Assembly: GCA_017508305.1 (NCBI GenBank)
Contig: JAFVZF010000119.1
Location: 34 to 64,033 of the forward strand
Length of the DNA: 64,000 nt
DNA from: Paludibacteraceae bacterium
Lineage (GTDB): Bacteria; Bacteroidota; Bacteroidia; Bacteroidales; Paludibacteraceae
Reading direction: 5' to 3'
Shown here piece by piece: positions 51,676 to 59,247 of this stretch. The notes beneath the pieces were generated by a model that ran no database searches, was not told the DNA's origin, and saw nothing but the letters and a program-made list of their open reading frames with translations. A program made the translations under genes and the position numbers. Position 1 is the stretch's first letter; every line of letters begins with the position of its first letter.

Positions 51676-51860
51676 ATTGTTTAGTTGTTTATTCGGGCTT
51701 TGCCCTCATGAAGTTGCTCACGCTCGGCATAACAAATAAATTTGTTCTGCTCTCGCTTAATCGCAACTTTAGTCGTTTAGTCGTTTGGCGATGAGCTATG
51801 ATTGATATGTTGCACTGCGCAATTGCATCATCGCATCACCGCATCACCGCATAGCCAATT
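51676..51860. repeat. Word array + H-core (51688-51767) + word arrays, filling the spacer and entering the 3' end of the next gene
   Basis: attgtttagttgtttattcgggctttgccctcatgaagttgctcacgctcggcatAACAAAtaaaTTTGTTctgctctcgcttaatcgcaactttagtcgtttagtcgtttgg ... catcgcatcaccgcatcaccgcatagcc. Confidence 0.9.
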
Positions 51861-52757: not shown

Positions 52758-54278
52758 TTAGAACTGAAAATAAATAAAGTTTTGCTGTGGTCCCATGTTG
52801 ATGATAATCAAAAGCGATAGGATAAAATAAATGCAGTATCGTACTGCATTGTTATGTATGCCCCTAACGGCAAGTCCGTGGTTTTCTGTGCGGTTAAACC
52901 ATTCCATGCCAATCATTATCAGCAACGGCAAAAAGATAAATACCTTGTTGGTAAGGTAGGGCATGTCCCATAGCTGGGGAGTACACAAACGTTCAAAATA
53001 CAGCAAGGTCATGTCCATGTTGTCCGATCGAAAGATAACCCATCCCACTACAGCCAATAAAAAAGTAATAGTCATCTTTGCTACTTCCGATAGGGAGGGC
53101 CAACATTTTACTGCCTTCAAATCGGTGGCATCCTTTGCCATAGAGCAAGTTGCCACCACATTGGTATATTTTCTGTTTTTCTCCAATAATATAAGCGGTA
53201 AGAATAGCAGGGCATGATAGGTTCCCCACACCAAAAAAGTCCAGTTGGCACCGTGCCAAAAGCCCGACAGTAAAAAGATAGTAAAGGTGTTGCGTACAAT
53301 TATTGCCTTTTTATACAAGGTAGGGTGTGCAGTGCCTTGTGGCAAGTTAGGACGCGAGCCTCCCAAGGGGATGTACACATAGTCCCTAAACCAAGTGGTG
53401 AGTGATATGTGCCATCGGCGCCAAAACTCGGCTATGTCGCGCGAAAAATAGGGCACGTTAAAGTTGCGCATCAGCTTGATGCCAAACAGTTTGCCCAAGC
53501 CGATGGCAATGTCGGAGTAGCCCGAAAAATCGCCATAAATCTGAAACGTAAACAGCACGGCAGCCACTGCCAAGGTGGCGGCATTGTGGCTTTCTATATC
53601 GGCAAAAATAATATCCACGTAATAGGCGCAGTTGTCGGCTACCACCACTTTTTTAAACATGCCCCACAGTATTTGGCGCAAACCATCTACGCCATCGGCA
53701 TAATTAAAACTGCGTTTTTGTAGAAATTGGGGCAGTAGGTTGGTGGCACGTTCAATGGGTCCTGCCACCAATTGTGGGAAAAAACTAAGAAACGCCGTAA
53801 AGGCAAGCAGGTTGGTGGTGGGTGGCAGCTTGCCTTTGTACACGTCTATGCTGTACGACAGTGCCTGAAAGGTGTAAAAACTAATGCCCACGGGCAAGAT
53901 AAGGTGCAACAGGTGTTTTTGGGCATCTATTTGTAGTAGGCTCGCCAATGAACTAACAAAAAAATCGTAGTATTTGTACATGCCCAAAATAAACAAGTTT
54001 ACCAGCACGTTACCCAGCATCCAAGCCTTTTTGTGCCATCTAACTTGGCTACGACCTATGGCAATGCCACTGACATACGAGCAAAGCGTGGTAAAGGCAA
54101 TGAGCAGCAAAAAGCGGGCGTCCCACCACCCATAAAACAGGTAGCTGGCACCTACTACCAACGCATTTTGGCAGACAAGTTGATACTTGCTGCCCCGCAT
54201 GGCATGGCCAAATACCCACCAATACAACGCAAAAACGATGGGCAAGAAAACCAAAAACTCGAACGAATTAAAGAGCAT
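52758..54278 (-). CDS. MBOAT family O-acyltransferase (AlgI/DltB-like)
   Basis: 506 aa and polytopic. NFNVPYFSRDIAEFWRRWHISLTTWFRDYVYIPLGG contains the conserved MBOAT His region. Confidence 0.9.
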   Translation of the reverse strand: MLFNSFEFLVFLPIVFALYWWVFGHAMRGSKYQLVCQNALVVGASYLFYGWWDARFLLLIAFTTLCSYVSGIAIGRSQVRWHKKAWMLGNVLVNLFILGMYKYYDFFVSSLASLLQIDAQKHLLHLILPVGISFYTFQALSYSIDVYKGKLPPTTNLLAFTAFLSFFPQLVAGPIERATNLLPQFLQKRSFNYADGVDGLRQILWGMFKKVVVADNCAYYVDIIFADIESHNAATLAVAAVLFTFQIYGDFSGYSDIAIGLGKLFGIKLMRNFNVPYFSRDIAEFWRRWHISLTTWFRDYVYIPLGGSRPNLPQGTAHPTLYKKAIIVRNTFTIFLLSGFWHGANWTFLVWGTYHALLFLPLILLEKNRKYTNVVATCSMAKDATDLKAVKCWPSLSEVAKMTITFLLAVVGWVIFRSDNMDMTLLYFERLCTPQLWDMPYLTNKVFIFLPLLIMIGMEWFNRTENHGLAVRGIHNNAVRYCIYFILSLLIIINMGPQQNFIYFQF

Positions 54279-55764
54279 CTATCAGTGTGGTTAGTTTCAT
54301 AGAGTTAGAACCTTTGATGAGCAATGTTTTGCCCGATAGAGGATGCGCTTGCAACCATTCTTTAAACAGAGAGGTCGATGCAAAGCGTGTGCCGATACCT
54401 GTTGTGGTTTCAAAATTTTTGCCCAATAAGTATGCCTCGCCAATGCCCAGCTGCTCCAATAATGACACTACTTTTTGGTGTTCGGTAGCGCTGTCGTCGC
54501 CCAATTCAAACATATCGCCCAAAATAACGGCTTTGCTATCGGTTTGAATCAAAGCAAAGTTGCGCAGTGCCGCTTCCATGCTGGTTGGATTGGCGTTGTA
54601 GGCATCTACAATTAGGGTGTTGCGCTCGGTTTTGGTTAGTTGCGAGCGGTTGTTTTGAGGGGTATAATCGCTCAATGCTTTGACAATTTGCGCAGCAGGT
54701 ACGCCAAAGTAGTGTCCCACGCAGGCTGCCGATAGCATGTTGCTCACGTTGTAGCTACCAATTAATTGGCTATTAACGTGGTAATTGTTGCCGTCGATGT
54801 TTAGGTCGATGTTTACAAAAGGAGTGCAGCTTACCACTTTGCCGTTAACGGGCAGGGCAGGGTTGGTGCCGTATAATTCGGTCACTGAGCTTGTCGAAGT
54901 GCCCGAATTATACGATTCATCGTTTTCTATGTTAGCAAGCATTTCTTTTAGGTGTGCATTATCGGCATCGACAAACACCGTTTTGCCACGGCTTAGCAGG
55001 TTGTGGTAAAGTTCTGCCTTGGTGTTTTTAACGCCCTCAAAACTACCAAAACCTGCCAAATGCGCCTTGCCCACGTTGGTAATAAGCCCTGCATCGGGCA
55101 TTACGATGTTGGCTAAAAACGCAATTTCGCCAGGATGGTTGGCACCTATTTCTATCACTGCCATGTTGTGCTCTTTGGTAAGGCGCAGTAGGGTTAAAGG
55201 CACGCCAATGTGGTTGTTAAAGTTGCCAAGGGTATAGAGTACGTTGTATTTTTTTGCCAATACAGCAGCCACCAACTCTTTGGTGGTGGTTTTGCCGTTG
55301 GTGCCCGTTATGCCTACGATGGGCGTGCCCAATACTTTGCGGTGGTGTGCTGCCAATTGTTGCAGTGCCACAAGGGTGTCTTCTACGTAGATATAGGGTG
55401 ATTCGGTGATTTGGTGATTTGGTGAGTCGATGTTCTGTCCCTGAGCTTGTCGAAGGGTCGATTCACCGATTACTCGGGCTTCGCCCTCATGAAGTTGCTC
55501 ACGCTCGGCATAATCAATGTAAACATTGCTTCTGCTCTCGCTTAATCGCAACTTTAGTCGATTAGTCGATTCATCGGAAGTTAACAACTCTTTGCGCGAG
55601 GTAAGCACGTACTTGCACCCCATCTCTACGGCTTTTTCGGCAAATTCGTTGCCATCAAAGTTTTCGCCCTTAAGGCACACAAACAAATTGCCCGCTTGGC
55701 AGGCACGACTATCGGTGCACACCCCGTTGCATGCCAAATAAGCTTGGTATATAGTTTCGATCAT
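54268..55764 (-). CDS. murF: UDP-N-acetylmuramoyl-tripeptide--D-alanyl-D-alanine ligase carrying in-frame repeat-element insertions
   Basis: 498 aa. CTDSRACQAGNLFVCLKGENFDGNEF, P-loop GITGTNGKTTTKE, IEIGANHPGEI and DAYNANPTSM. Residues about 62-123 are encoded by a composite repeat. Confidence 0.9.
   Translation of the reverse strand: MIETIYQAYLACNGVCTDSRACQAGNLFVCLKGENFDGNEFAEKAVEMGCKYVLTSRKELLTSDESTNRLKLRLSESRSNVYIDYAEREQLHEGEARVIGESTLRQAQGQNIDSPNHQITESPYIYVEDTLVALQQLAAHHRKVLGTPIVGITGTNGKTTTKELVAAVLAKKYNVLYTLGNFNNHIGVPLTLLRLTKEHNMAVIEIGANHPGEIAFLANIVMPDAGLITNVGKAHLAGFGSFEGVKNTKAELYHNLLSRGKTVFVDADNAHLKEMLANIENDESYNSGTSTSSVTELYGTNPALPVNGKVVSCTPFVNIDLNIDGNNYHVNSQLIGSYNVSNMLSAACVGHYFGVPAAQIVKALSDYTPQNNRSQLTKTERNTLIVDAYNANPTSMEAALRNFALIQTDSKAVILGDMFELGDDSATEHQKVVSLLEQLGIGEAYLLGKNFETTTGIGTRFASTSLFKEWLQAHPLSGKTLLIKGSNSMKLTTLIDAL
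54872..54912. repeat. S-type stem-loop inside murF: a perfect 10-bp outer stem (TATAATTCGG/CCGAATTATA) enclosing TCAC-TGAGCTTGTCGAA-GTGC
   Basis: Read directly. Same loop as the copies at 32800-32823, 32850-32873, 33201-33226 (inverted), 55437-55457 and 59802-59840. Confidence 0.85.
55397..55576. repeat. Composite element inside murF: word array (55397-55432), S unit (55437-55457), words, H-core (55470-55552), word array (55553-55576)
   Basis: The H-core differs only slightly from the intergenic copies at 35881-35940 and 51688-51767. The segment that looks inserted spans 186 bp (62 codons), so the murF frame is preserved. Confidence 0.9.
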
Positions 55765-55852: not shown

Positions 55853-55939
55853 GCAAAAGTGTGAAAAACATAGTGATTTCGCCTACTTTTTCACAGGTTT
55901 GCTGTGATTTTTGATAGGAAAGGTGTGAAAAAGTGGTAT
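55853..55939. repeat. Left copy of an 87-bp direct repeat bracketing the ATPase gene
   Basis: gcaaaagtgtgaaaaacatagtgatttcgcctactttttcacaggtttgctgtgatttttgataggaaaggtgtgaaaaagtggtat. It ends 1 nt before the ATPase stop codon and contains GTGTGAAAAA twice plus its inverted copy TTTTTCACAG. Confidence 0.9.
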
Positions 55940-57361
55940 TTATTTAAATAAATCCTCCAGTTTTACCTCCGACTGAATGGAATTCCAATAGGTATTCCGT
56001 TTTAAACCAAATGAGGTAACCATGGTGAGGTGAATGGATTTTGTGGTTTTTGAATATTTTCTAAATATCTCCTTTCTTTCTATCATCCAGTTGTTATAAT
56101 CCTGCGTAATGGCATATTCATGGTTGCTGTATTTCATTTCGCATAAATTGATAATGCCATCTTTGCGATCAATAATCAAATCAATTTGAATTCCTTTGTT
56201 AGAATTGTTTGTTTTTTGGTGCCATGCAGAACATTCTGCATATACTCCCGAGATGCCTAAAGCAGCTTTAATCTGTGGAATATGCCACAAACACAAACGT
56301 TCAAAGGCTAATCCCGCCCAATTGTAATAGATAGGGGAGTCTATGTTATAACTCCAAAAGTTAGCTTCGTGCGATTTGTTCTCTTGTATAAATTGCAGGT
56401 AAAATAATGTAAAATTGTCAATCAATTGATAAATGAGGTTGTTTTTAGGCTTCCCAAAACTATTATAAGAACGAATAAAACCACTTTGTTCCAATTCTAT
56501 CAAGGTGCGCTTAAAAACAGCGTTGTTAGAAAGTTTAGCGGTTTTCAATATTTCGTCCCTTTTCATGCCGTATCTTTTGCTTCCCAGGGCTTTTACTATG
56601 CTAATGTAATTTTCGGGACGCTTAAAGATAGAGGCATATAAGGCATTAAATTCATTTTTGAACGTGGCATTCTCGTAAAAGAATAGACGATCGACGTTTT
56701 GTGCCAAACTCTCTCCCTTACGCAAAAAACTCCAATAGTACGGAATACCTCCCATAATCATATACGCCTCTGCAATATCTTTTGCGGATAACTCGAGATT
56801 TGAAGCTTTAACGTATTCTTGGCAGGCACTGAGTGAGAAAGGTTGAAGGTTGATTTGTTCTGTTACTCTATTATATAGCCCGCCCGTGTTGTTAATGATA
56901 TTGTTTATAATCCACGTAGTAGAGCTACAGCATGTTATAAGTACGACATCTTCGCGTGCACTAAGGTATCCATTCCAGAAGTGCTCCAATGCGCTTACAA
57001 AGCCACTTTGTTTTGCGTCTAACCAAGATAGTTCGTCCAAAAAGATAACTTTCTTTTCGTTTGTTGGCGTTTGTTCTATCAACGAAAGCAAACTCATAAA
57101 GGCTTCGCTCCAATCGCTTGGTCTGCTGTGTTGCTTAGGTAGCCCATAACGTAAAAGCGATAGGTAAAACTCTTTTAATTGTGTACTTTTATTTCCATTA
57201 GCAACTCCTGTGTGCGAGAACAGGAAATTATTTTGGAAGGTTTGTCTAATTAGATATGTTTTTCCAACACGTCTTCTGCCGTAAATGACGCAAAACTGAC
57301 TTTCTTGCTTGTTTAGCAAATTAAGTAAAATGGACTGTTCTTTATCTCTTCCTATTAGCAT
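55940..57361 (-). CDS. AAA-type ATP-binding protein (archaeal-ATPase-like N-terminal domain + DUF234-type C-terminal domain)
   Basis: ATG at 57359-57361 gives MLIGRDKEQSILLNLLNKQESQFCVIYGRRRVGKTYLIRQ (Walker A), then VIFLDELSWL (Walker B). The ORF-track N-terminal extension reads through the flanking repeat. Confidence 0.8.
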   Translation of the reverse strand: MLIGRDKEQSILLNLLNKQESQFCVIYGRRRVGKTYLIRQTFQNNFLFSHTGVANGNKSTQLKEFYLSLLRYGLPKQHSRPSDWSEAFMSLLSLIEQTPTNEKKVIFLDELSWLDAKQSGFVSALEHFWNGYLSAREDVVLITCCSSTTWIINNIINNTGGLYNRVTEQINLQPFSLSACQEYVKASNLELSAKDIAEAYMIMGGIPYYWSFLRKGESLAQNVDRLFFYENATFKNEFNALYASIFKRPENYISIVKALGSKRYGMKRDEILKTAKLSNNAVFKRTLIELEQSGFIRSYNSFGKPKNNLIYQLIDNFTLFYLQFIQENKSHEANFWSYNIDSPIYYNWAGLAFERLCLWHIPQIKAALGISGVYAECSAWHQKTNNSNKGIQIDLIIDRKDGIINLCEMKYSNHEYAITQDYNNWMIERKEIFRKYSKTTKSIHLTMVTSFGLKRNTYWNSIQSEVKLEDLFK

Positions 57362-57420
57362 AGCTGAAGTTTCTTTTAGGCAAATATAAACAAAAATATA
57401 AGAAAGTGAACAAATTTGCG

Positions 57421-57507
57421 GCAAAAGTGTGAAAAACCATGTGATTTTTCCTACTTTTTCACAGGTTTGCTGTGGTTTTTGATAGGAAAGGTGTGAAAAA
57501 GTGGTAT
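57421..57507. repeat. Right copy of the 87-bp direct repeat (upstream of the ATPase gene)
   Basis: gcaaaagtgtgaaaaaccatgtgatttttcctactttttcacaggtttgctgtggtttttgataggaaaggtgtgaaaaagtggtat. Only a handful of mismatches to 55853-55939. Confidence 0.9.
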
Positions 57508-57630
57508 AAACAGGCAATAAAAGATCAACGGCTGTAACTTATCTAAGCTTACATAAATGTTAAACATATATTGAAATTTGTGAATGAAGGCTATTTTAAA
57601 TATTTTTGTACTATAAAATACTGTAATAAT

Positions 57631-58089
57631 ATGAGCACTACGAGTTATAGCAATGGATATAGTGGATTGGCTATCGCGGATTACTTTGTAAAAAAAGCTT
57701 TATCTCAAAATGAATCCATAACTAATATGCAAGTACTTAATATGATGTACTTTGCACAAACATTTGGATTTACAGAATTAAACAGGCGGTTAATTAAAGA
57801 TGAATTTTACGCTTGGCAATGGGGACCTGTTGAGCCTAAAACATACGCGGAATTTCGGAAATATGGAGGTCAAAGTATAAAAGAAATTTCCCATAAAACT
57901 AATAAGGAACTTGACGATATAGAGAGTCAAAAAGATATAAAAGAATTTCTTGATAAAATATATATACTGCGAACAGCAGATCCTTTTGTTCTTAACAAAA
58001 AAACTAACGGTCTTGGTAGCCCATGGGCTGAAACAAACCCTTATGGTGCAATTGACATAAGTCTAATTCGTAATGATTTTATAAAATAA
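57631..58089 (+). CDS. Panacea (DUF4065) domain protein, SocA/GepA-like putative antitoxin
   Basis: ATG at 57631. 152 aa: LAIADYFVKKALSQNESITNMQVLNMMYFAQTFGFTELNRRLIKDEFYAWQWGPVEPKTYAEFRKYG fits the DUF4065 pattern (KLQKLLYFAQ...AWxxGPVxxxVY). AT-rich. Confidence 0.75.
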   Translation: MSTTSYSNGYSGLAIADYFVKKALSQNESITNMQVLNMMYFAQTFGFTELNRRLIKDEFYAWQWGPVEPKTYAEFRKYGGQSIKEISHKTNKELDDIESQKDIKEFLDKIYILRTADPFVLNKKTNGLGSPWAETNPYGAIDISLIRNDFIK

Positions 58090-58460
58090 TGAGCCAGCTA
58101 GATAATTTTATTTCAGAATATGCTAATACGGACCCTAATGTTTCAGTTAGTCCAAGCAAGGTGCAAGAAAGTTTCCAGTTGCTAGATAAAGATTATGAGA
58201 TTTCTCAAAAAATAATAGAATTAGTACAAATTAAAGATAAACTTGCTGATATTGATTTAAAGAAGATTTACGGAATCTGCCTACTTGTAATTTTAGCTTT
58301 ATGGATTATTATGGTGGCATTTATTTGTATTACTTATATCTTTCAGGACTCTCCTCACGTTTCTGATACTGTTCTAATTACATTATTTACGACCACAACA
58401 GCTAATATAGTGGCTCTTCCAACCTTAGTATTAAAGTATTTGTTTCCTATAAAAGACTGA
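58089..58460 (+). CDS. Small two-TM membrane protein, translationally coupled to the Panacea gene (candidate toxin partner)
   Basis: 123 aa. Its ATG overlaps the upstream TAA (TAATG). A soluble ~68-aa N-terminus is followed by IYGICLLVILALWIIMVAFICITYIF and VLITLFTTTTANIVALPTLVL. Confidence 0.6.
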   Translation: MSQLDNFISEYANTDPNVSVSPSKVQESFQLLDKDYEISQKIIELVQIKDKLADIDLKKIYGICLLVILALWIIMVAFICITYIFQDSPHVSDTVLITLFTTTTANIVALPTLVLKYLFPIKD

Positions 58461-58494
58461 AATAAAAAAATCAATCCGGTCAAATAGGTAAAAT

Positions 58495-58525
58495 AAAGGT
58501 TCAGAAGAAATGCTTCTGAACCTTT
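58495..58525. terminator. Bidirectional rho-independent terminator between the convergent TM-protein and LRR genes
   Basis: AAAGGTTCAGAAG-aaatg-CTTCTGAACCTTT. Confidence 0.8.
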
Positions 58526-58560
58526 ATTACATAACTTATTAAGGAAACTTTTACGTAAAC

Positions 58561-59247
58561 TTATGGCTTGGGCAAAAGTTTAATGCAGATATTCTTATAA
58601 ATATTGTGAAATGCGCTAGTCGTAATACCACATGGCAGCTGTCCTACAAAATATACAGTTCTCAAATTTTCGCATGATGCAAACGCCATTGGTTCAATGT
58701 ATTCTACACCATATGGAATGGTAATTTCTGTCCCTTTATAATGGCACAAAGCATATTCGCCAATAATTTTAACTCCTCGCCAGTCTTCTGCAGTAATAGG
58801 GATATTTGTAGAAGCATATATCAATCTTTCGCCAGAATAATCCGTAACGATAATATTTTTTGTTTCTTTGAAGAATCTATTCGGTTCATCTGTTTCTGGG
58901 TTGTCTATGATAATGCTACCTACGGTACAATTGCAAAAGGAGAATCCACTAAAAACTCTTAAGGTAGGAGGCAAATGTAACTCTGTAATATCTCCACCTA
59001 TTGCTGCACCACATATACCTATAACTTGGTACACCTCATTATGATGTTTAACAGCTTCTGGAATACATAACACCGTTCTGCCTTTCTCCTTCTTAACAGC
59101 AGAACTTGTTACCATTGAAACCATAACGCTACCTGCCTTATTATTCTCAGGTTCTTTATCAATAGCATAATGAATCCCGTTCTCATCAAAGGAGCCACCT
59201 CCGCCAAAGGGTACATCTGGTGATAAATTTTTAATCTCGTGTTTCAT
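58561..59247 (-). CDS. BspA-type leucine-rich-repeat (LRR_5) domain protein, no signal peptide seen
   Basis: ATG at 59245-59247 (MKHEIKNLSP). Segments such as IGEYALCHYKGTEITIPYGVEYIEPMAFASCENLRTVYF match the BspA-like LRR pattern. The ORF-track start is a TTG 18 codons upstream. Confidence 0.6.
   Translation of the reverse strand: MKHEIKNLSPDVPFGGGGSFDENGIHYAIDKEPENNKAGSVMVSMVTSSAVKKEKGRTVLCIPEAVKHHNEVYQVIGICGAAIGGDITELHLPPTLRVFSGFSFCNCTVGSIIIDNPETDEPNRFFKETKNIIVTDYSGERLIYASTNIPITAEDWRGVKIIGEYALCHYKGTEITIPYGVEYIEPMAFASCENLRTVYFVGQLPCGITTSAFHNIYKNICIKLLPKP

Follow-up and report, generated by a model that had tools for sequence, protein, structure and literature searches.

A T3-type PanA-PanT candidate toxin-antitoxin pair on a mobile cassette in a gut Bacteroidales genome

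The window analyzed here is a 64,000-nucleotide stretch of contig JAFVZF010000119.1 from a Paludibacteraceae bacterium (assembly GCA_017508305.1; positions 34 to 64,033, forward strand), and the element in question is a pair of overlapping genes, panA (open reading frame A, ORF A) and panT (ORF B). We consider it likely that the pair is a type II toxin-antitoxin (TA) module of the known PanAT class T3, mobile as a unit, in which the Panacea protein PanA restrains a membrane-depolarizing PanT. A preliminary description of this DNA, made from the sequence alone, had read the genes as a PanA/PanT toxin-antitoxin pair. That reading is supported by the DUF4065 match of PanA, strict co-conservation, the overlap of antitoxin and then toxin gene, and mobility, each of which is set out below.

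Results

A Panacea gene overlaps the gene of a predicted two-helix membrane protein

The product of panA consists of a Panacea (DUF4065) domain alone, with no extra domain at its N- or C-terminus. It matches the Pfam model PF13274 (SocA_Panacea) at 42 bits (E=2e-10) against a gathering cutoff of 25.7; a failure to match DUF4065 models, which would have refuted the preliminary reading, did not occur. The best NCBIfam match is the SocA_antitoxin model, which scores 62.7 bits over residues 13-133 and thus falls below its equivalog cutoff of 190. A sequence search for PanA relatives of solved structure found none. Gene callers return the same 152-residue product on other assemblies. An upstream TTG start at 57571, which would lengthen the ORF to 172 residues, was considered and rejected, given these calls and the presence of a conserved promoter motif inside the extension; because this motif falls within the TTG-started ORF, we take the ATG at 57631 as the true start.

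The TAA of this 152-residue ORF overlaps the ATG of the 123-residue ORF B in the sequence TAATG, at exactly the positions first described (Table 1). A TAATG or TGATG junction is kept in four related loci (L001, L002, L005, and L006), which implies that the two genes are coupled in translation.

Table 1 Features of the panAT region and its surroundings (window positions)
Feature	Position	Strand	Remarks
87-bp direct repeat	55853-55939 and 57421-57507		93% identical, internal inverted repeats; brackets the ATPase gene
ATPase_2-family gene	55940-57364	-	59 bits; upstream of panA, divergent orientation
Segment of 1.8 kb missing from L014	57542-59330		panAT and BspA-type LRR_5 gene; found by synteny BLAST and by reading the L014 and L015 sequences
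Predicted Bacteroidetes-type promoter	57577-57608	+	TTTG (57577-57580), 20 nt, TAttTTTG (57601-57608)
panA (ORF A)	57631-58089	+	ATG start, 152 aa; candidate antitoxin, stand-alone Panacea (DUF4065)
TAATG stop/start overlap	58087-58091	+	TAA 58087-58089, ATG 58089-58091; one base common to both
panT (ORF B)	58089-58460	+	ATG start, 123 aa; predicted membrane toxin, T3 family
PanT residues 1-60	58089-58268	+	acidic helical N-terminal region, 7 K/R and 11 D/E; predicted cytosolic
PanT TM1, residues ~61-85	58269-58343	+	very hydrophobic; Kyte-Doolittle 19-residue means up to 3.0; pLDDT ~80
PanT TM2, residues ~94-116	58368-58436	+	moderately hydrophobic, Thr-rich; hydropathy means 1.2-1.6
TTTTAN within PanT TM2	58389-58406	+	part of the signature SD-VLI-L-TTTTAN, followed by KYLFP
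Hairpin after panT	58492-58528		16-bp stem without mismatches and 5-nt loop; lies between the stop of panT and the LRR gene, which is convergent
BspA-type LRR_5 gene	58561-59247	-	downstream of panT, convergent
TM, transmembrane helix; LRR, leucine-rich repeat; pLDDT, AlphaFold per-residue confidence score

Pfam, NCBIfam, and PADLOC contain no model that ORF B matches. Its architecture, on which Kyte-Doolittle hydropathy and a pair of AlphaFold models agree, bears out the soluble N-terminal half and two C-terminal transmembrane (TM) helices of the preliminary description. The modeled helices comprise residues 3-12 and 22-85, and the loop between TM1 and TM2 is short and acidic (QDSPHVSD). Since Lys residues flank the hairpin on both sides and none lies in the loop, the positive-inside rule would place both termini in the cytoplasm (N-in/C-in). 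Thr101 to Asn106, Tyr117, Leu118, and Phe119 are invariant or nearly so among 109 relatives. Residues 1-60 form the variable part of the protein and are presumed, by analogy with the modeled and mutated PanT:PanA pair of Bartonella choladocola (PMC10440598), to bind PanA and confer specificity.

Homology places PanT in toxin cluster T3

Searches of a 5.8-billion-protein collection yielded 12 close relatives of ORF B, 49-99% identical and all metagenomic. Its own subfamily amounts to 13 clusters at 90% identity (49-100% identical), confined to gut metagenomes, and no member was found among GTDB species representatives. A profile of this subfamily, searched against 1.84 billion cluster representatives, retrieves 1,227 clusters (50% identity) at E<=1e-3, nearly all of them 100-140 residues long. 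Common to the family are a basic juxtamembrane K/R-K-x-Y motif and TM1, followed in TM2 by (L)SD-VLI-L-TTTTAN and KYLF.

Three members of this family are identical to proteins from Sphingobacterium paludis (P0185, WP_133639783.1), Niastella populi (P0273, WP_081164616.1), and Niastella yeongjuensis (P0283, WP_081197679.1), all of which are listed as cluster T3 toxin partners of PanA in Dataset S1 of Kurata et al. 2022 (PMC8832971). BLASTP aligns ORF B with T3-listed proteins at E=1e-10 to 3e-10, the identity of 30-38% being confined to the C-terminal 76 residues. Comparison of the ORF B subfamily profile with a T3-type profile by hhalign gives a probability of 99.3% (E=1.5e-20) over the C-terminal 76 columns. 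On the strength of the three T3-listed homologs and this profile-profile similarity, ORF B is classed as a divergent member of the described PanT family T3, representing a small gut-Bacteroidales subfamily and not a new toxin family. The proposal of a new PanT family, put forward in the preliminary description, was rejected on the same evidence, its T3 homologs being listed in the very paper that the description had cited.

The gene arrangement is in keeping with this assignment. Antitoxin-toxin overlaps of -14, -4, and -1 measured in the DNA equal the values in Dataset S1, with -14 belonging to the S. paludis locus (L008), and the antitoxin-then-toxin order and overlap of the window pair are consistent with the 'A|T' column of that dataset. 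T3 as defined there already includes the Bacteroidales genera Porphyromonas, Butyricimonas, and Prevotella, and also holds the Escherichia coli STEC O31 pair of PanT WP_000019185.1 and PanA WP_000287252.1 (PMC8832971). A protein search with a Commensalibacter T3 member returned only 3 close relatives, and a tblastn search for the E. coli PanT among plasmids and phages gave no match.

panA and panT are co-inherited and under purifying selection

Every close relative of ORF B that could be located lies directly 3′ of a 149-residue Panacea gene. Their surroundings vary and include a P22-type portal gene (L001) as well as a second Panacea pair with an IS1595 transposase next to it. The wider linkage survey covered 5 GTDB loci from a first pattern scan, 4 diverse metagenomic members, and 33 GTDB loci from a second scan, the last of these distributed over Bacteroidota, Acidobacteriota, Proteobacteria, Armatimonadota, and Firmicutes. 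A hidden Markov model built from PanA proteins detects a same-strand PanA-like ORF that ends at or just before the toxin start at 32 of the 33 loci; at the remaining one, the contig ends 329 nt upstream of the toxin. A same-strand Panacea gene is also found directly upstream in all of L001-L013 and L094-L111. Conservation of the gene neighborhood, which had been proposed as a check on the pairing, thus extends to every assessable locus, and panA and panT are strictly co-inherited as a unit.

In both genes, nonsynonymous differences are far rarer than synonymous ones, indicating purifying selection. Comparison of PanA with its homologs gives proportions of nonsynonymous differences (pN) of 0.11-0.30 and of synonymous differences (pS) of 0.56-0.85. 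The TM half of PanT is the most constrained part of the pair (pN 0.09-0.21 among close homologs) and its N-terminal half the most relaxed (pN 0.31-0.44), with identities of 33-50% in the N-terminal half versus 69-84% in the C-terminal half. PanA and PanT diverge in step across homolog pairs. The recurrence of the coupled pair in many unrelated contexts, together with purifying selection, rules out ORF A and ORF B as chance reading frames.

The predicted promoter ends 22 nt before the panA ATG, and the consensus to which it was matched is the established Bacteroides sigma-AB type. A TTTG-N19-20-TAnnTTTG motif also occurs 5′ of panA in modules L001/L002, L005, and L007, which are divergent and differ in the sequence around the motif; a promoter function is inferred from these matches. 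The hairpin downstream of panT is likely a bidirectional terminator. Its stems are kept in strain L094, in which the loop is altered, and a simple terminator scan missed it because the plus strand has no T-run. Metatranscriptome fragments of the panAT region come from one bovine-gut dataset only, in contigs spanning 58323-58567. A further 151-nt contig of bovine-gut metatranscriptome origin joins 57556 to 58323 and skips the 766 nt between them, comprising the promoter, the whole of panA, and the first 78 panT codons; this junction, which was not seen in four DNA metagenomes, may have arisen by chimeric assembly or may mark a deletion in a different strain. The bovine-gut fragments are too thin to show either transcription or a deletion variant.

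The panAT pair is a mobile cassette in a variable region downstream of murF

The pair comes from an uncultured Bacteroidales bacterium of the gut. MurF of its closest GTDB representative (L014) is 94% identical, and the next-closest genomes by this measure are Candidatus Enterocola and Paludibacteraceae metagenome-assembled genomes (MAGs). The nearest relative genome, L014, is collinear with the window on both flanks, yet lacks both the ATPase gene upstream of panA and the 1.8-kb segment containing panAT and the LRR_5 gene (Table 1). In other gut metagenomes, same-species strains retain the order murF-ATPase-panA-panT, with the LRR gene present or absent. In another metagenome (run X20), the panAT unit at ~57526-58560 carries unrelated flanks, with loose ends at 57526 and 58560. 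The panAT pair is therefore a mobile cassette of ~1 kb, located at a variable site 3′ of murF. The LRR_5 gene is itself polymorphic within the species, occurring in L094, L096, L097, L098, and L099 and not in L095 or L101.

Elsewhere in the family, the pair is found in ordinary chromosome, in prophages beside endolysin genes, and with a SecB-like gene 5′ of panA. The SecB-like chaperone gene lies immediately 5′ of PanA and a T3-type PanT in L107 (3040-4459), L108, and L109, a layout reminiscent of toxin-antitoxin-chaperone (TAC) systems in which the antitoxin would here be a Panacea protein. T3-type PanAT genes stand beside an N-acetylmuramoyl-L-alanine amidase gene in L008 (7445-10196) and beside a Peptidase_M15_3 gene in L102-L104 (2316-4348). 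These endolysin-adjacent contexts are unrelated prophage or phage contigs, and the L008 pair is the S. paludis pair of Kurata et al. In L002 and L003 (161-1101), a second Panacea pair, consisting of a 128-residue PanA that overlaps a 185-residue partner by 4 nt, lies together with the IS1595 transposase less than 3 kb from the ORF B-type pair. A Candidatus Enterocola sp. MAG (L137, 930-1794) has a T3-type PanAT pair that is different and more distantly related, from which it follows that this lineage acquired T3 PanAT more than once.

The neighboring ATPase has a separate history. It had been described as a DUF234 ATPase, and an ATPase_2-family gene is indeed adjacent, but the C-terminal DUF234 match is sub-threshold at 16.9 bits versus a cutoff of 22.5. 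The whole length of the protein aligns with the PADLOC candidate PDC-S27 (E=1e-194). The 87-bp repeat is present as a single copy in L014 and L015, from which the ATPase is absent; since the gene is bracketed by two copies in the window, it is apparently a discrete insertion. The region upstream of murF seems to have been duplicated in the process, so that one copy now precedes murF and the other the ATPase gene. Because the ATPase accompanies none of the panAT homolog loci in other taxa, we take it to have entered this hotspot independently of panAT.

A second repeat occurs in this region. Two copies of ~100 bp, ~88% identical and in the same orientation, are located at 51690-51790, which is intergenic, and at 55478-55575, in frame within the murF-like ORF (54268-55764, minus strand). 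The latter copy adds ~35-40 residues to the product (…RLKLRLSESRSNVYIDYAEREQLHEGEARVIGES…). The murF genes of L015-L018 are without this stretch, and L016 holds copies elsewhere. The copy in murF may be an intragenic insertion resembling a miniature inverted-repeat transposable element (MITE).

Discussion

Published work on related pairs provides the basis for a mechanism. The T3 PanT of E. coli STEC O31 depolarizes the inner membrane, causes SYTOX uptake, and is neutralized by its PanA; T3, T12, and T4 PanTs all collapse the membrane potential; and the PanAT pairs tested by pull-down form direct complexes, as in type II systems (PMC8832971). Where a stand-alone Panacea protein is paired with a membrane PanT, neutralization occurs through contact with the toxin's N-terminal region before the TM segment, as supported by the mutants Y56A and H120E (PMC10440598). 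From these relatives, we infer that the window's PanT would be toxic, target the membrane, be bound directly by PanA, and have the topology given above.

In the model that we favor, panA and panT would be transcribed from their own promoter, with translation coupled through TAATG. PanT would reside in the inner membrane, its N- and C-termini both cytoplasmic and its chain passing from the N-terminal region through TM1, the short acidic outer loop, and TM2 to the KYLFP tail. Cytosolic PanA would bind the variable N-terminal and juxtamembrane region of PanT (residues ~1-60), the variable N-terminus serving as specificity determinant, and binding would block insertion of the TM hairpin or its assembly into a depolarizing or permeabilizing oligomer. 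If PanA were lost, degraded, or displaced, free PanT would collapse the membrane potential and growth would stop. Possible triggers include loss of the cassette and a phage or stress cue sensed by the Panacea protein. The TTTTAN belt, predicted to lie at the membrane mid-plane, is a plausible pore-lining or packing element. The module could serve in addiction and stabilization of its cassette or in abortive infection; its hotspot beside a PADLOC defense candidate and the prophage contexts of its relatives are compatible with a defense role.

Several points weigh against a toxin-antitoxin module of this kind. The AlphaFold models of PanT are of moderate confidence, with pLDDT values of 66 and 69 overall and ~80 over the hairpin, and PADLOC has no model for a panA-panT pair. 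We know of no functional studies of any Bacteroidales T3 pair. The near-invariance of the polar TTTTAN stretch suggests a specific channel or interaction and not generic membrane damage. The tie between ORF B and the validated E. coli PanT runs through the clustering of Kurata et al. and through homology to three other T3 members. Finally, several predicted membrane PanTs were non-toxic or were not neutralized in E. coli, according to the supporting information table of Kurata et al. (PMC8832971).

The near-invariant polar TTTTAN belt in mid-TM2 also lends some appeal to an alternative in which PanT is no growth-arresting toxin but a regulated small channel or holin-like membrane effector of phages and mobile elements that acts, for example, in lysis timing, superinfection exclusion, or as an abortive-infection pore, with PanA as its antiholin-like inhibitor or sensor and the window copy as a domesticated or orphaned moron. 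Endolysin genes adjoin the pair in two independent prophage contexts (L008 and L102-L104), the P22-type portal gene lies near it in L001, relatives of ORF B match three PHROG families of unknown function, and Ernits et al. prefer a sensor role for Panacea (PMC10440598). Adjacency to endolysin genes is weak evidence, however, because lysis-cassette flanks are common moron sites, and many family members, the window copy included, sit in ordinary chromosome without lysis genes. No endolysin gene is found in the window neighborhood of ORF B, which also matches no holin family; tblastn found 0 relatives in 50,697 deposited phage genomes; and when the PanT model was compared with PDB and BFVD by Foldseek, no significant match emerged, an outcome to be expected of a helical hairpin. 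The validated T3 member, moreover, is a classic neutralizable toxin (PMC8832971). We therefore consider a holin-like effector unlikely. More speculative still, and in our estimate rather improbable, is a general form of this idea in which T3 PanTs are not generic membrane disruptors but specific oligomeric channels with a pore lined by the Thr/Asn belt, and PanA is a phage- or stress-sensing 'antiholin', the pair controlling lysis timing or exclusion in prophages and abortive infection from the chromosomes of gut Bacteroidales.

PanA might instead act through proteolysis and not by binding alone, as an adaptor handing PanT over to ClpXP or to a membrane protease such as FtsH, in the manner of a type VI system of the SocAB kind. 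SocA is the founding Panacea protein, and its NCBIfam model is the one that ORF A matches best, but the score lies far under the equivalog cutoff and PanT bears no similarity to SocB. Direct PanA-PanT complexes were recovered in the pull-downs of tested pairs (PMC8832971), and interface mutants of a stand-alone PanA abolish neutralization of its membrane PanT (PMC10440598). The SocA/ClpXP analogy is the less likely mechanism where the Panacea protein stands alone and its partner is a membrane toxin, and we judge a proteolytic adaptor to be very unlikely here. That panAT and the adjacent PDC-S27-type ATPase together form one three-gene defense system has still less to recommend it. The ATPase gene lies directly upstream in divergent orientation, accompanies panAT in all same-species strains recovered, matches a phage-defense candidate, and is missing along with panAT from the sister genome L014. 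Against this, it is near none of the panAT homologs in other taxa, it was inserted separately from panAT, with an 87-bp repeat of its own on either side, and the panAT of run X20 has a different upstream flank from 57526 onward. A three-gene system was rejected for want of co-occurrence in other taxa, and its probability is in our view minimal.

Read as a two-gene PanA-PanT module, the window pair extends the T3 PanAT class by a gut-Bacteroidales subfamily. It also allows a sharp family signature to be defined (K/R-K-x-Y, SD-VLI-L-TTTTAN…KYLF) for proteins most of which Pfam misses, and the fast evolution of the cytosolic N-terminus, set against a TM hairpin that hardly changes, offers a testable split of specificity and toxicity. 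The gain is one of annotation, as a 'hypothetical two-TM protein' can now be named a PanT (T3-type) candidate toxin; the picture of TA biology is unchanged.

Comparison with known systems

Among described families of small membrane proteins, ORF B matches none of the Pfam families DUF6442 (PF20040), SLATT, and S_4TM at E<=1. Some of its relatives come closer. The proteobacterial member P0270, a distant relative, reaches the DUF6442 threshold with 26.1 bits (cutoff 25); P0185 matches SLATT_5 at a sub-threshold 17.3 bits (E=0.003; cutoff 29.5); and a single relative gives a sub-threshold match to S_4TM (E=0.015). Dataset S1 tags two T3 proteins as 'S_4TM superfamily' (PMC8832971). The similarities of relatives to SLATT and S_4TM may be only compositional.

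The SocAB system of Caulobacter, a type VI TA system, resembles the window pair in that SocA belongs to the same Panacea fold family as ORF A. There, SocA serves as the ClpXP adaptor for the toxin SocB, which itself binds the sliding clamp DnaN. ORF A is not a SocA equivalog (62.7 versus 190 bits), and PanT is unrelated to SocB. The PanT of Helicobacter sp. (T4) is a parallel in architecture, as its soluble N-terminus is helical or coiled-coil and its TM helices are C-terminal, and it depolarizes the membrane. It differs in belonging to another cluster and in depolarizing without permeabilizing (PMC8832971).

In the pair of Bartonella choladocola (apis), a stand-alone Panacea protein neutralizes a small membrane toxin (T12, or NetFlax D11) through direct contact with the toxin's N-terminal region before the TM segment (PMC10440598). 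T12 forms a separate cluster; according to Kurata et al., it is possibly homologous to T3 (PMC8832971). The T3 pair of E. coli STEC O31 shares with the window pair a stand-alone Panacea gene upstream of a small toxin gene, a charged toxin N-terminus, C-terminal TM helices, and short overlaps.

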